DNA of 64,000 nucleotides from Savitreella phatthalungensis (lineage: Eukaryota). Location: NCBI GenBank assembly GCA_051599415.1, contig AP039700.1, positions 248,001 through 312,000 of the forward strand. The letters are read 5' to 3'. Made by a program: the position numbers and the translations under genes. Numbering within the stretch: position 1 is the first letter of the stretch; each line of letters starts with the position of its first letter. Positions 24,681 through 32,708 of this stretch are shown here, one piece after another. The notes under the pieces were generated by a model. That model was not told the origin of the DNA. It ran no database searches and saw only the letters and a list, made by a program, of their open reading frames with translations.

Positions 24681-26237
24681 TCAATCAAGTCGGAGAGTCT
24701 TGGATTCGCGCAAGGCCGCTGTAGGATCCTTGACCTGGTTTGATCGATGCTTCGGCCGGCTTTCGCCATCTTTTGAGGAACTCCCTCCCTCCTCTTCTTC
24801 GTCGTCCTCATCCTCCTCCTTTCCGGCGTCCTTGATCCGTTTGAGTTCACCGACAAACGAATTGCCCCAGTATGCGGACGTGTATTTGTGCACGTACTTC
24901 TCCAGCTTGTCAAAGTTGTCTTTCCGCTGGTCGTGCGGCAAGGTGACGGCTTCGTGGATGGCGAGTGCCAGGTCGTCCACGTTCCAGGGGTTGACGATGA
25001 TGGAGCCGTTCAGAGACTGGGCTGCGCCTGCAAACTCGGAGAGAATGAGTGAACCGTGACGCTCGCCCTGGCAGCACACGTACTCGTAGCTCACAAGATT
25101 CATGCCGTCGCGCGTGGACGTGATCAGGCATACGTCCGAGACTGCGTAGAGCGAGATCAGCTCGTCAAACGGCACGCTCTTGTGCATGAAGTGGATTGGC
25201 ATGAATTCGGCAGTGCCAAATTTACCATTGATGCGACCGACGAGCTCGTTGACGACGGCGCGCAGGTTCTGGTATTCTTCAACATCGCCGCGCGATGGTA
25301 CTGCCACTTGGACAAGCACCACCTTGCCGATCCACTCAGGGTGCTCCGTCAGGAAGACCTCGAGCGCGTGCAGCTTCTGCGGCACTCCCTTGATATAGTC
25401 CAGCCGATCAACGCCCACGATCAGCTTGATCCCCTTGAATTTCTCCTCAAGAGTCTTTATCCGTGCCTGGACCTTTGGCTTCGCCAGACCTTCTGCAAAA
25501 AGGCTCGGGTCGATGCCGATCGGATATGTGCCGACGTGAACCATGCGCCCATTGAACTCGACACCGTTCGGCAACGTTGGCAGCTTTAGGATGCGCGAGC
25601 ATGCGCTCAGAAAGTGCCGAGCATAATCGTACGTGTGGAAGCCAATGAGATCACATGACAAGACGCCCAGGAGAATCTGCTGACGAACGGGCAGGATGCG
25701 GTAAATCTCGGAAGAAGGGAAAGGGGTGTGGAGGAAGAAACCAATGCGGACGTTTTTGAACCGGTCTCCCATTTCCTCCCGGAGCATCTCCGGGAGCAAC
25801 ATCAGATGGTAGTCGTGTACCCAGATGATATCACCGTCTTCCACACCTTGCGGTCCATGAACAATGGCTCTCGCAAATGCCCTGTTTGCCTCCTGGTATG
25901 CAGCCCAGTCCTCCTCCAGGAAGCTGATCTCTCCCGGATGGTAGTGGAACAGTGGCCAGAGGATCGAATTGCTGAACCCATTGTAATGCCGATCTGAGGT
26001 CTCTTCATCGAGATAGACCGGTACAGTTGTGTAGTCACGCATCAAAGTCTCTTCTACCCCTGCGCGATCGGCTTCCGGCACCTCAAGGCCAGGCCAGCCG
26101 TACCAGGTGAATTTGGTAGTCCGCGCAAGACCGGCAAGGGAGGAAACAAGACCCCCTGCACCCTGTCCGAAACTGTATCCATGCTCGTCCTTCTTCATGG
26201 ATACCGGCATCCGGTTTGAAGCCAGAATGAGCTTCAT
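24681..26237 (-). CDS. TPS1: Trehalose-6-phosphate synthase
   Basis: Motifs SNRMP, GGLVS, HYNGFSNSILWPLFHY, WVHDYHL, GFFLHTPFPSSEIY, GVDRLDYIKG, RDGMNLVSYE and LSEFAGAA. Confidence 0.98.
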   Translation of the reverse strand: MKLILASNRMPVSMKKDEHGYSFGQGAGGLVSSLAGLARTTKFTWYGWPGLEVPEADRAGVEETLMRDYTTVPVYLDEETSDRHYNGFSNSILWPLFHYHPGEISFLEEDWAAYQEANRAFARAIVHGPQGVEDGDIIWVHDYHLMLLPEMLREEMGDRFKNVRIGFFLHTPFPSSEIYRILPVRQQILLGVLSCDLIGFHTYDYARHFLSACSRILKLPTLPNGVEFNGRMVHVGTYPIGIDPSLFAEGLAKPKVQARIKTLEEKFKGIKLIVGVDRLDYIKGVPQKLHALEVFLTEHPEWIGKVVLVQVAVPSRGDVEEYQNLRAVVNELVGRINGKFGTAEFMPIHFMHKSVPFDELISLYAVSDVCLITSTRDGMNLVSYEYVCCQGERHGSLILSEFAGAAQSLNGSIIVNPWNVDDLALAIHEAVTLPHDQRKDNFDKLEKYVHKYTSAYWGNSFVGELKRIKDAGKEEDEDDEEEEGGSSSKDGESRPKHRSNQVKDPTAALRESKTLRLD

Positions 26238-26934
26238 CCTGGTGATCTTTGTTCAGCTGATCGTGTAGGTGATGTGGTCGTCTGCTGAGCCGGAATGAAA
26301 TACACTTGCTTCCTTTATAGTCAATGTGGTGTTGAATATGCTACAAGTACTGCGTGTAGTAGATGAACTTGCCCACAGCTGACTCTGTGATTCACACTGA
26401 GCGAGTGCCGTTGCCGTTGCACGTCGCGTGACCCTTGATGATAATGCTTGATGAAAGAGCAAGTGGATGGAGAATGAGGCAGGAGTTGCTATTGCTGTTG
26501 TGGTTGCAGTTGAGCGTGGTGGAGGAGGAAAGGAAGATATGACGCCTGTGCTGATTTGGTTTTTCTTTCCAAGGATGAAATTGAGATTGCTTGAATGCAT
26601 GATCCGGAGTGATGCTCACTGGCTTGAAACCGTCGAGGTCGAATGCAGGAATGGATTTCTCAAACGGCCCCGGCGGTCGCCATGTGTCATGTGCCACACA
26701 GGTCGTGTGGACTAACGGCAGCTAGTGAAAGGCATAGGACTCCGCTCAAGGACGAAGCTACATATGATATCACATGTGAACGGAAATGGGCACCACTATA
26801 GATGAGGTAACTCTTCACATGTTGTCGTAAATACTGATCGGCTCCAAACCTTTGGGAGTGACCGGGTCTCATCACATCTTCACCTTGTCCATCTGGTCAG
26901 GAATCCAAACAAGGTCCAGCAATTCATCTTCAGC

Positions 26935-27867
26935 ATGTCGGAGGATGCGGCACTACAGATCTACCAGGACATGGCAAACATGGACAAGCAAGCATTTGGG
27001 AGGGGCAAACTGCCCGGGTGTATGTTCTGGGATCTGCTGGAGGAGTGTACAATGATTTTATTCCCCATGAATCCCACAACCAGGCGCTGGATTGCCGTTG
27101 TTGCGTCCCTCAGGTCTACCCATCCCATCCTAGAGAAGGGCATATGTGTGGTGAAAGCCACAATCTTTGACTCCATTGGCGACAACACCTCCTACAAGGA
27201 TCGCATGGAGTTTGACGTCGTGCAGCTCCTCACCTTGCTTGTCCAAAACAAGTCGTTATCGGTCACTCTTGACTGCGATGTGCATGTGCAAGTCAAAATC
27301 GAGTATGGCCGATGCTCCAAGCAACACAATGATGAGGACTGTGGCGTGCTGACCTCCGACAACCTCCTTCGGCTAGACAACCTCCTTCGGCTAGAACGAG
27401 ACGGGGAGCTCCCTCTGCCCATCACAGATCTGCCCATCACAGATCCCCATGAGATGCAACTTCATGGTGAGGAACTTCGCTGGACCACCATGGGGGAGAT
27501 ACGCGCAGCCTTTGAACGTCAAACCTTTGGGCCCTATGTCCGTCACCCTAAGAAGAAGCACCAAAAGACCGCACGTCGCATCGCAGCTTTGGAGGAGCAG
27601 GACCTAGACCGCATGACAGACACATCACCTTCATTCATTCCGCAAGTGCTGGCTCCAAAAGAACTGTGCAGCTCGCAACAGAATCTGACACAGCTCATCA
27701 TGGACCACTTAGCCATTTCTGGCGGATCTTCTACCTTTGGGTCAATCTTGAAGTCAGTGGAAGCCCAATGGCATCATTGGTTTGTCAAGAACAAGAAGTC
27801 CCCAACTTTACTTGTTCAAGCGCTACTGAGAGCCTGCAAGGCGTTGTTCCAGGTGGTTGACAATTAA
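26935..27867 (+). pseudogene. Ulp1/C48 SUMO-protease-like domain plus winged-helix-like domain (fragment 1)
   Basis: ILFPMN...RWIAVV (Arg where the catalytic His of the HW motif is expected), IFDSIG and KQHNDEDCGV. Then LTQLIMDHLAISGGSSTFGSILKSVE...FQVVDN. Confidence 0.7.
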
Positions 27868-28827
27868 TGCATCTTGCGTCCGATGCCCGCCACATTCACA
27901 ACAGAGCAGATTGCTGCAATCCATGATCCAGTGGACAATCCAGATACTGTCACTGTGCCTGGTCTTGACAGCTATGAAGAAACAGATCTTGTGGTGGCGG
28001 TGTTGCGGAAGAGCCGCGGACACATCAACAATCACGCCGTACAGGCTCACAAGCGCAGACCTCAAGAGATTGAGGAGGCCTTCTATGCTAGGTACTCCAA
28101 TACACCAGAAAGATGCATCGAGGTCAAGAATTCTGCCCACTTAGACACAGTCCTTGACAGTGGAAGGCTTGGATGGTATCCACTGCCAATAGAGCCGGTT
28201 TCCAGTCGCGCAAGGTTCCTGGAGCGCAACAATCCCATAAACTCGGACTGCCTGGAGCTGCTCCAAGGCGCCAATTGGCGCGGCCTGAGCGTGCGTCTCA
28301 TTGCCATTGGATGGGATGGGATCCCAACAAATCCAGAGACGTTTGCCTGGCTAGCAGAGACATCTCAGGACATCAACTTCACACTCACACACATTGTTTG
28401 GGGCAGCTCGATTGTCGATCATCCAGATCTTGCTCAGTCAATAGGCCTCAATTGCTTGGACAGCAATCAGCGGTCAAATGTCATTGCCTCATGGCTTTGC
28501 CATCATGACGAGGAGAAAGACCTGACATGGCTTCACTATAGCGTCAAGTGCCTTGCCTCCTTGCGGAGTGGCAACCTGACCTTGATAGAGCTAAACCAAG
28601 TAACAGCTCATCACTTATGCCTCATCTTCTACCTCTACAAGATTGACTGTGCCAACGCTTTGCAAGGCGCAATGGAGAAGAGCTGGGGCTACAAGGACAA
28701 AAGCTTCAAGAAACTGGGCAAATTTCTTGGTTGCTATCTAGCAAGCACATGGACGCGCCTCGGTCTGCGTCTGCCAACAGCCAACGATCGACCAGCCGCC
28801 AACAATCGATCACCTGCCATTGATTGA
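27868..28827 (+). pseudogene. Serine-recombinase/resolvase-like domain (fragment 2)
   Basis: VVAVLRKS (compare YaRxS), EPVSSRARFLER...LELLQ (compare ExvSG...RPxlxxll) and VRLIAIGWDGIPTN (compare lvVxklDRLxR), in resolvase order. Confidence 0.4.
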
Positions 28828-28839
28828 TCAGCTGCCTGA

Positions 28840-29823
28840 ATTCCAGCAGATCTTGATTGTACAGATCAATGCGCAACTCGAGAGGAGAGCAGATACCTCT
28901 GTCCAGTATGTGACAAGGAAATGCCGTTAGTCAAGGCACGAGGTCATCTGGGACGGCACATCGCATGCTCTGACAATGGTAAGAAGTGCCCTGTGACAAC
29001 ATGCACTCACACTATCTCAAAGTCGCATTGCCCTGCTATGATGAAGCATCTCAAGATCCATGAGACTGATGTGCATGGCAGGGATCGCCCGAGACTGGTC
29101 TGTGATGACTGTGGTGCCTGCTTCAAGCACAAGCATCAGCTTGTTCAGCACTCAGCAATCCACCAAGGAGAGTACGTCTGCAAGGACAGCAATTGCGGCA
29201 CTGCCGATGTTGTTCGCATCTTTGACAAACGCGGGTTAAAGGGCCACCAGAAAAAGATACATGGTCATCTGTACAAGCACCACAGTGCCTCAAACTACAA
29301 TCTGCCATATGTCTGCGGGCATTCAACCTGCCGAAAGGGATTCAAAAGCCTTCAGGCATTGCAAACGCACAATCGGCTTGGGCACAGACGTCATCAGACA
29401 AGAAAGGTGCCAGACAACCTTTTGACGGGTCAGAACACCAGTGACCATGCGAACAAGGCTACGAGTGAGAACACAAGCGGCGACCCGAGTCGGGACACGA
29501 GTAATCATGCAAATGAGGCTGCGGATGAGAATACAAGCGGCGATTTGAGTGGGGACACGAGTAAATATGCAAATGAGGCTGCAGGTGAGAACACAAGCGA
29601 AGATGCGAAAAGTGAGGACCCGAGTGAAAATGATCAAGACGCGCTGGAAGATGAAGACAATGGAGAGGCACTCGAAGACACAGACAAGGTAGATGCAACT
29701 GGAGACCAAGATGAGGAATGGAATTTGCCTTCAAGCTCTCCTGCACCACAAAGTAACGACAAGACAACTTTATGGCGCCAGGTGCCGGTGGCAAAATTTT
29801 GCCCGTGTTCCACTCCTGTGTGA
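28840..29823 (+). pseudogene. C2H2 zinc-finger array with acidic repeats (fragment 3)
   Basis: Five fingers: CPVC..HLGRH (begins upstream of the track's ATG), CPVTTC..HLKIH, CDDC..HSAIH, CKDSNC..HQKKIH and CGHSTC..HNRLGH. Confidence 0.8.
29433..29612 (+). repeat. Three ~60-bp coding tandem repeats
   Basis: NTSDHANKATSENTSGDPSR / DTSNHANEAADENTSGDLSG / DTSKYANEAAGENTSEDAKS. Confidence 0.85.
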
Positions 29824-30380: not shown

Positions 30381-32708
30381 ATGTCAGGTGAGGACATTTC
30401 CCATTTCCACAATCGCGCAGCCGTGATCGAGGTGCAGTGAGACAGACGAGACGTTGAAGGGGTTGTGCCCGAAGCTGGACTTGGTTTCAGAGGATCTTAT
30501 TTTGAGGTGAACAAATGGGGTGGGTGAAGGTCTCGGGATGAAATTGATTCATGGAGGCACATTCTCTTTCGAGACGCGTCGTGCAGCTCCTCAAAGCGCC
30601 GGGAAAGGCAATACAGCGAGCGTGTACGCGATGAGGGGGAATCGACTTCATGCGATCTTGCGTCGCATGGCAGATCGAAACCAGCACGTGTCGTTCTCGT
30701 CGCTTCTATCAGGAGTCAGGGTGAAGGACATGCGCATGCACGCTGACGTCGGGCAATATGCTGGCAGAATCACTCTGTTACTGAATTGGATCATGCACCA
30801 AATATGCAGTCCCATGTATACGCATGTGGACAGACTCGCTCGTCTTCCATGACGAATAGACAAGTCACTTGATGAGTCTGCGAGAAACAAGACACCATCA
30901 TTTTCCCCTCCCCACTTTTGACCCTCATCTCCTCATTGCATCCTAACCTTGATTGACGACTGCGCAGTGCTCCTCAGTAGAGCGTTGGCGAAGGAACAAA
31001 AGCTGATATATTTGCAATAGCACCATTAGGACTGGCAGATCGGATAAGAGACTACTCTCCAGCACGTGACGGCAGATCGCGATATTCTGGCGGAGGAGGA
31101 GCAGCAGACGACGCACCTTACGACAGATATCAGGCCGGTTCACGAGGAAGGTCTCGTTCGCCTGGAGTCGACGCACGTCGCTACTCGTCTGGTCGGAGAG
31201 ACGACGATCGCTACTACGACGCAGGCAATTCCAGACCTAGATCCAGGTCTCCGCTTCGACGTGGCGGAGCTGGCGGTGACGTCGACATGCCAGACGGCGA
31301 TTTCCGTCGTGTCTACGTCGGTAACCTCTCCTATGACACCAAATGGACCCATCTCAAGGATCTGATGCGTGAAGGTAAGTCGCCCCTTCCATGGACCTTG
31401 ATCTCTCAGTACTGACCCGCACAGTTGGTGAGGTGCTCCACGCTGATGTCCTCACTCAGTCTACTGGTCGATCGAAAGGTTGCGGCATTGTCGAATTCGC
31501 TTCCGCAAGCGATGCGCGTAGAGCAATCCGCGAGCTGACTGAGACCACCTTCATGGGCCGCAAGATCTTCCTTCGTGAGGTACGTTGCCCGCCTGTGAGA
31601 CAAACATGATAGCAGGTTTACTGACATCTCGCAGGACCGTGAAGAAGGACGTCCACCACGCCACAACGCACCACCTCCGCGTGACGACTATGGTAGACGC
31701 GGCGACGATTACGGCCGCCGTGGCGGCGATGACTACGACCGTCGTGACCAGAGCTTCGAGGAGCGCAGACTGCCACCTGGTCGTGGCGAACTCGCTCCTG
31801 TCACTATCAACAGCCCGCAGCTCTTCGTCATGAATTTGTCTTACAGCGTCGATTGGAAGGAGCTCAAGGACTTCTTCCGATCCGCAGGCAAGATTGTCCG
31901 CGCTGACATCCAGACCGGCTCGGATGGTCGCTCGCGCGGCAACGGTATCGTCGTCTTCGAGACAGTCGGAGACGCTCAGAATGCTGTCGATCGTTTCAAT
32001 GGTTACGAATGGCACGGCCGCCGGATCGAGCTGCGTGAGGACAAGTTTGCCCGTGAGGGCGGTCGGGGTGGCAATGGCCGTGACGATCGTCGCGGTGGAG
32101 GTGATGACTATCGTGGCGATGGTGATCGTGGACGTCGGGAGCGTCGCAGGTCCGACGACTATGACGACAAGCCGTCTCGCGCACCAAGAAACGCCTCACC
32201 TCGTGCACGGAACCCATTCACCGACGACGCGCAGTCTTCAGAGACACCATCGGCTTCTATCATGGTCCGTAATCTCCCATGGGCCACCACGAACGACGAC
32301 CTGCTCGACCTCTTCACCACCACAGGCACTGTCGAGCGTGCAGAGATTGCATACGATCGTACCAATCGTCCTGCTGGCACAGCCGTCGTGCAATTCGCAT
32401 CGACTGAACATGCTCAGCAGACGATCGCCAAGCTCGATGGCTACAATTATGGTAACCGCCCGCTAATGCTGACATACGCGTCGTATGGAGACGACGTTGC
32501 GCCTGCAGCTGGATTAGCCGACGGAGAGGACAACGCCATGACCGGAGTGGATGATGGCGCAACTCCGGCCATCCCCAACGGAGCAGGTGACATCACCGCC
32601 TCGTCCATCCAGATTGCCAATGTCTCAGACGAGCCAGCCCAGCCTATCGAGCCTCCAGTGCCAGCTAGCGATGGAGACGACCTCGACGTCCCCATGCCAG
32701 CGGTCTAG
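30381..32708 (+). CDS. GBP2: SR-like mRNA-binding protein with three RRMs (Gbp2/Hrb1 family), 4 exons
   Basis: Exons 30381-30387, 31021-31374, 31425-31579 and 31635-32708. Introns are GTGAGG..TAG (633 nt), GTAAGT..ACTGAC..CAG (50 nt) and GTACGT..ACTGAC..CAG (55 nt). RS-rich N-terminus, RVYVGNLSYDTKW, GRSKGCGIVEF, LFVMNLSYSVDWKELKDFFR, GRSRGNGIVVF and VRNLPWATT. Exon 1 is less certain. Confidence 0.9.

Follow-up and report, generated by a model that had tools for sequence, protein, structure and literature searches.

A conserved, undescribed Arg-x-Ser domain in a stop-interrupted fungal gene and its possible descent from the serine-recombinase fold

To our knowledge, there are hardly any records of serine recombinases from the nuclear genomes of eukaryotes, IS607-type elements apart, and a literature search on this topic turned up only IS607/Fanzor-related work. 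A segment reminiscent of a resolvase catalytic domain in the genome of the fungus Savitreella phatthalungensis raises the question of what this domain is and in what kind of gene it resides. The segment lies within a window of 64,000 nucleotides (contig AP039700.1, positions 248,001 to 312,000; all coordinates below are those of the window), and the sequence-only reading of this DNA had proposed that it adopts the resolvase/invertase fold, with the nucleophilic serine kept and the DRLxR motif replaced by DGIPT. The strings on which that proposal was built are all present, at the places given for them, in the frame-1 translation of 27868-28827, namely LVVAVLRKS (in which Ser44 is the AGC codon at 28012-28014), EPVSSRARFLER at 28192-28227, LELLQ and VRLIAIGWDGIPTNPETF. 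Frame 1 also has the best codon usage, with a score of +0.113 vs -0.11 to -0.40 for the five other frames. It should be noted that such motifs are easily found. The pattern hh.h.R.S occurs in 1,268 of 20,000 shuffles of the 314-residue protein, and a loose three-part pattern (RxS ... [ST][SG] ... hh.h.{1,2}D) occurs in 112 of 20,000, so that the pattern seen by eye could by itself be due to chance, given a 64-kb window read in six frames. Moreover, because the serine motif is what drew the earlier reader's eye, its presence in the protein of the window is not independent evidence. What lifts the pattern above chance is the conservation of its residues across homologues.

A conserved domain of about 190-200 residues, hitherto undescribed and unnamed, has its core in the flagged segment. 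The protein that contains this domain (P0001; Table 1) matched no Pfam family at E<=10, and its comparison with PDB sequences gave marginal rows only, the best at E 0.015 (a CHAT-domain protein, residues 208-280). In an exhaustive phmmer search of 1.84 billion representatives, its only relatives were two long proteins, P0002 from Elasticomyces elasticus (1869 aa) and P0003 from Hortaea werneckii (1567 aa). In this long form, the matched region is preceded, at a distance of approx. 200 residues, by an Ulp1/C48 peptidase domain and is followed by zinc fingers. A compact subfamily that lacks the peptidase came to light in profile searches; it consists of P0005 from Lophium mytilinum (659 aa) and two JGI proteins of approx. 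450 aa (P0006 and P0007); in this short form, the domain makes up the C-terminal part of proteins of 450-660 aa, and hhalign comparison of the family profile with these three members gave probabilities of 94-99%. A metagenome scan for relatives of the compact subfamily contributed one further confirmed member among 148 pattern matches (L019, on a 2.2-kb contig). The named members are thus all Dothideomycetes (H. werneckii, E. elasticus and L. mytilinum), the three others being metagenomic, and the family is tiny, with a narrow taxonomic range of a few Dothideomycetes of the black-yeast type.

Several features outside the domain may be recorded here. In their N-terminal halves, ahead of the domain, P0005, P0006, P0007 and L019 bear one to three copies of a short motif of the form (A)P.(V/I)F..KG.FR, and an AT-hook-like KRGRGRPKK is present in P0005 as well (Pfam AT_hook, E 0.27). 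At residues ~782-809 of P0003, in the stretch that separates the peptidase from the domain, the cysteines show the spacing C-x2-C-x6-C-x5-C-x2-C-x7-C; by eye it resembles a Zn2Cys6 cluster, a candidate that was dropped because Pfam reported nothing at E<=5.

Alignment of seven sequences, in which identity to the protein of the window is 16-29%, reveals seven residues that are invariant in 7/7 sequences: R42, S44, R59, S108, L127, D145 and T149. The serine of the RxS motif is therefore conserved together with its arginine, as the sequence-only reading would have it, and both the Asp and the Thr of DGIPT (D145 and T149) are kept as well, as is the second Ser of VSSR (S108). Around these positions, the first-strand motif varies as VVAVLRKS, IVPVMRKS, LVPVVRHS and I.I.FTRAS, and the two other family motifs can be written as (V/T)SS(R) and G.DG..T; R109 is retained in 6/7 sequences, with P0006 having its Arg one position later. 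The polar residues R42, S44, R59, S108 (with R109), D145 and T149 constitute a candidate active site; in the predicted structure they directly follow strands 1, 2 and 3, apart from R59, which is located early in the first helix. Two template-free AlphaFold models, built from 4 and 6 sequences with most of the input common to both, agree on a beta-alpha-beta core with predicted strands at 34-42, 97-103, 135-142, 165-173 and 214-220 and helices between them. The resulting order of elements (strand, helix, strand, helix, strand, helix, strand) comes from low-confidence models, with mean pLDDT of 53.0 and 54.7 and pTM of 0.53 and 0.58; the core blocks reach pLDDT 62-86, and the loops bearing the conserved residues stay below 50. 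Beyond strand 4, the predicted elements are short helices, a hairpin (206-220) and, at 245-268, helices of low confidence (pLDDT 41-46).

Table 1. Features of the locus and its surroundings (window coordinates)
Feature	Position	Strand	Evidence
Glyco_transf_20 (trehalose-phosphate synthase family) gene	24684-26252	-	E 6.8e-189
ORF1, Ulp1/Peptidase_C48-like remnant	26806..27864	+	Pfam PF02902
In-frame TAA stop, ORF1/ORF2 boundary	27865..27867	+	sequence
ORF2 (P0001, 314 aa), holds the flagged domain	27883..28824	+	translation, codon usage
Conserved alpha/beta domain core, P0001 residues about 33-230	27979..28572	+	AlphaFold models, alignments, hhalign
R42-K43-S44, invariant Arg-x-Ser right after strand 1	28006..28014	+	7/7 sequences
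R59, invariant, early in first predicted helix (53-71)	28057..28059	+	alignment
E104-P-V-S-S108-R109, loop after strand 2, S108 invariant	28192..28209	+	alignment
W144-D145-G-I-P-T149, after strand 3, D145 and T149 invariant	28312..28329	+	alignment
Two in-frame TGA stops, ORF2/ORF3 boundary	28825..28827 and 28837..28839	+	sequence
ORF3, C2H2-like zinc fingers and acidic repetitive tail, same frame as ORF1 and ORF2	28840..29820	+	
Protein gene with two RRM domains	31599-32705	+	Pfam

The open reading frame that encodes the domain does not stand alone. It is the middle third of a single frame (26806-29820) that is interrupted by three in-frame stops, and the thirds encode, in order, an Ulp1/C48 peptidase remnant, the flagged domain and C2H2-like zinc fingers, which is the domain order of P0002 and P0003. 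ORF1 exceeds the curated Pfam cut-off for PF02902 (E 7.3e-5, 23.1 bits, cut-off 20.7) and aligns to residues 579-779 of P0003. The catalytic residues of Peptidase_C48 (Ulp1) are His, Asp and Cys, and ORF1 lacks the full set: Asp (FDS) and Cys (DCG) are retained at their positions, and an Arg is found where P0003 has the His of 'HW'. The zinc-finger matches of ORF3 to Pfam zf-C2H2 are weak (E 0.0095, under the cut-off). Single BLASTP/tblastn alignments span the TAA, and the read-through translation, with the stop written as X, aligns in one piece to residues 579-1171 of P0003 (E 7e-22) and 912-1398 of P0002 (E 2e-18). Splicing does not offer a credible way around the stops. A GTRNGT donor is absent from all 22 in-frame GT..AG candidates over the TAA, as is a CTRAY branch site, the 20 candidates over the TGA pair are likewise without consensus splice signals, and the count over all stops is thus 0/42. 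In addition, the copy in the window is without the N-terminal 580-900 residues of the long form.

Within the same frame, ORF1 contains two perfect tandem duplications just past the C48 Cys region, 27358-27393 (18 nt x2) and 27414-27443 (15 nt x2), which encode DNLLRL-DNLLRL and LPITD-LPITD. ORF3 holds three tandem 60-nt units at 29426-29605, 68-75% identical to the first unit, whose product is an acidic 20-residue unit rich in Ser/Thr/Asn.

Since homology is continuous across the first stop and the domain order matches, the copy in the window looks like a decaying relic, and we infer that the three ORFs are the shortened, stop-interrupted remnant of one long-form gene. With its N-terminus and its peptidase His lost, and with TAA/TGA/TGA stops that no credible intron removes, this copy is best viewed as a probable pseudogene (at most a gene in fragments) and is itself probably non-functional. 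A recent gene fission, which would have left three separately working genes with ORF2 as a live stand-alone protein, is the less likely account and in our estimation an unlikely one. In its favour, ORF2 has its own ATG five codons past the TAA, all seven invariant residues are retained in it, and codon usage is coding-like in all three ORFs, with no frameshift over 3 kb. However, homology in ORF1 begins at residue 27, 5' of its first ATG (26935), and the first ATG of ORF3 falls inside the first finger, after its C-x2-C. Nor does fission fit well with the missing peptidase His, with the loss from the copy in the window of a Cys-rich stretch into which the homologues run on, past the shared LPT..(D/Q)R, at the place of the ORF2/ORF3 boundary, or with the fact that the homologues are single long proteins. 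The practical message for the window is that the locus should be read as one broken gene and not as three genes.

The surroundings of this broken gene are those of an ordinary, gene-dense region (Table 1). No terminal repeats or element-end repeats were found in 25.5-31.5 kb and no second copy of the locus within the window, and an IS607/Fanzor-type setting, to which the sequence-only reading had alluded, receives no support, as no TnpB-type family was found by Pfam among the ORFs scanned in 24.6-32.7 kb. Short separate DNA contigs match 27697-27794 and 29281-29418, with 12 differences each over 98 and 138 bases, and then continue into unlike sequence; they were found in both DNA runs, made from a single sample, and suggest that the genome contains, at another place, a further copy or haplotype of the gene that has diverged. 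In one diverged Logan contig, 29418 is joined directly to 29708, and 289 bases around the repeat array of ORF3 are skipped. All the Logan contigs of these runs that align here are diverged, partial look-alikes.

Whether the domain is related to serine recombinases was approached at the level of sequence with profiles and with a comparison set of 13 serine-recombinase sequences, fetched from E. coli and phage records. The relationship that the sequence-only reading proposed to check by profile comparison did not appear there: neither P0001 nor any of 4 members matched the Pfam Resolvase profile at E<=10, a family-profile search of PDB sequences matched nothing at E<=10, and hhalign against the 13-sequence resolvase alignment gave a probability of 0.2-0.7%. 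The hhalign score was 15.6 vs 11.8 +/- 2.2 for a column-shuffle null, and 15.6 was attained in 5/60 shuffles. The preferred local alignment places strand 3 of the domain on resolvase strand 4, and forced extension puts R42/S44 on the resolvase R-x-S in an alignment that is not significant. When the catalytic signature is followed along the chain, an Arg-x-Ser is found where it should be at the end of strand 1, R42/S44 lying directly after the predicted strand 34-42. The Tyr at -4 is missing, as it also is in the large integrases of the resolvase alignment (e.g., L017 has V). The Asp-Arg-x-x-Arg expected after strand 3 is replaced by D145-G146-x-x-T149. In the 13-sequence resolvase alignment, D-R is present in 13/13 sequences and the second Arg in 12/13; in the fungal family, these arginine positions are taken by Gly (Ala in P0007) and Thr. 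Because there is no profile match and the DRLxR arginines are absent, the domain was not filed as a member of the Resolvase family.

Structural comparison, which covered 48,161 PDB cluster representatives, is more favourable to the relationship, within limits set by the quality of the models. Foldseek found nothing at E<=0.001 in the PDB with either model, or in BFVD with model 2, and the rows at E 0.04-0.1 include resolvase/serine recombinase entries along with methyltransferases, aminotransferases and others. Nonetheless, serine-recombinase catalytic domains recur among the top matches of the low-confidence models, accounting for 5 of the best 50 entries for one model, rank 1 included, and for 10 of the best 50 for model 2 (9dxd, 3guv, 3g13, 9iu2, 3bvp, 5cy1, 4bqq, 2rsl, 6dgb and 2mhc). 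Only 21 distinct PDB sequences are matched by phmmer with PinE, and serine recombinases are therefore strongly over-represented in the structural lists. Beta-carbonic anhydrases, which SCOP places in the same fold class as serine recombinases, appear among the matches as well. Unrelated folds tie with these entries, among them P-loop kinases, zeta toxins, SRP GTPases, vWA domains and the beta-CASP domain of RNase J, and neither AlphaFold model contains a long helix E predicted with confidence. Of the original proposal of a resolvase fold with its serine kept and DRLxR replaced, the conservation of the serine and the replacement of the arginines have thus stood, whereas a profile link is lacking and the structural evidence for the fold is weakly positive.

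Taken together, these results make it possible, with a probability of roughly 35-40%, that the domain derives, with very strong divergence, from the catalytic fold of serine recombinases (resolvases) and acts on DNA. In such a derivative, Ser44 would occupy the position of the resolvase nucleophilic serine, as we infer from its place in the predicted fold; R42, R59 and R109 would supply positive charge; and D145 would be placed where resolvases carry the Asp of DRLxR. Since the arginines of DRLxR have given way to Gly and Thr and a long helix E is not evident, intact members would have either a re-wired active site or serve as non-catalytic modules that bind DNA or a partner. A more specific extension, which is doubtful at present, would regard the family as a Dothideomycete, eukaryote-specific offshoot of the serine-recombinase superfamily, with the Arg-x-Ser nucleophile loop retained and the DRLxR arginines replaced, fused to Ulp1 and zinc fingers and representing either a new mobile-element transposase or a domesticated DNA-rearranging enzyme.

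The same observations can be accommodated by a new Rossmann-like alpha/beta domain that has nothing to do with serine recombinases, for example a CARF/SAVED-like or P-loop-less kinase-like one. It would be an enzyme or a small-ligand sensor with binding-site loops after strands 1-3, its resemblance to resolvases would be of the generic kind that three-layer sandwiches show, and we rate this account at somewhat less than an even chance. The missing profile similarity and the missing DRLxR arginines argue for it, as does the fact that the structural scores are all in the noise range, with many folds tied; Csm6 CARF chains hold ranks 2, 4, 5, 8 and 9 in the Foldseek list for model 1, five of its ten leading rows, and six CARF/SAVED entries are present in the best 50 for model 2. 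Yet generic likeness does not readily explain why so rare a group of PDB sequences as the serine recombinases should recur to the extent described above. CARF families keep motifs after strands 1 and 4, unlike the pattern seen here, in which conservation follows strands 1, 2 and 3. Furthermore, no Gly-rich P-loop or methyltransferase motif follows strand 1, and no Pfam family of such kinds matches. On inspection, methyltransferase, P-loop and caspase readings were set aside, as neither Gly-rich loops nor a His/Cys dyad is located at conserved positions.

It is far less probable that the domain is a leucine-rich-repeat-like, or another non-enzymatic beta-alpha repeat, scaffold for protein binding. 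This idea derives from ESM Atlas, in which both the whole protein and residues 28-232 fall near RNI-type clusters (LRR_6 and LRR_TMOD-LMOD) with scores of 0.77-0.85, and from the alignment, in which the later strands of homologues appear to be spaced 25-29 residues apart. However, these scores are under the trust level of 0.9, and 0.8 is attained by a third of shuffled proteins; no Pfam LRR family matches at E<=10, and the AlphaFold models, despite their low confidence, form a sandwich and not a solenoid. The invariant loop Arg, Ser, Asp and Thr are also more in keeping with an active or binding site than with a scaffold of repeats.

If descent from the serine-recombinase fold is true, a conserved fungal family with a resolvase-like core and an altered active site would extend the reach of serine-recombinase chemistry, provide a natural experiment on the residues that the resolvase fold needs, and might point to mobile elements of a new class. 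Should the fold be assigned wrongly, the analysis still yields a clean definition of an unnamed domain by its seven invariant residues, its two architectures and its occurrence in few taxa, and this domain can be named and tested. A full-text literature search listed no paper linking a resolvase-like domain with Ulp1 in fungi.

Among known systems, CARF/SAVED domains share with the fungal domain the three-layer alpha/beta sandwich, a conserved Ser/Thr after strand 1 and weak structural matches. They differ from it in the absence of a sequence match and in a strand-4 signature that the fungal domain does not have, its own conservation being after strands 1-3, and they belong to prokaryotic defence systems. 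IS607/Fanzor2-type elements, in which a serine-recombinase TnpA neighbours a TnpB/Fanzor gene, differ in their surroundings, as ORF2 is adjoined by a C48 remnant and zinc fingers and flanked by Glyco_transf_20 and RRM genes. A parallel in architecture is provided by Ginger1/Mutator-like elements. Fusions of Ulp1 domains with the DNA transposases of Ginger1 and Mutator are known (PMC2836005), and such elements resemble the long form in combining Ulp1/C48, a putative DNA-acting domain and zinc fingers in one polypeptide (PMC2836005). Ginger1/Mutator-like elements are characterised by DDE enzymes, terminal inverted repeats and many copies, whereas no DDE domain, terminal repeats or second copy were found in the window.

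A further comparison is with the serine recombinases (PF00239), i.e., gamma-delta/Tn3 resolvase, the Gin/Pin invertases, the large serine integrases and IS607-type TnpA. The fungal domain has no significant sequence or profile similarity to them, Gly (Ala in P0007) and Thr replace the DRLxR arginines, it has longer loops and, in the long form, one more helix between strands 1 and 2, it is without a confident long helix E, and its family is eukaryotic, confined to a few Dothideomycetes and fused to Ulp1. The repeated strand-helix order of serine recombinases is the one predicted here, with an Arg-x-Ser after strand 1, a Ser loop after strand 2 and an Asp after strand 3; no other family recurs as often among the best structural matches of the fungal domain; and, like theirs, the fungal domain is attached in its homologues to modules of a DNA-binding type.
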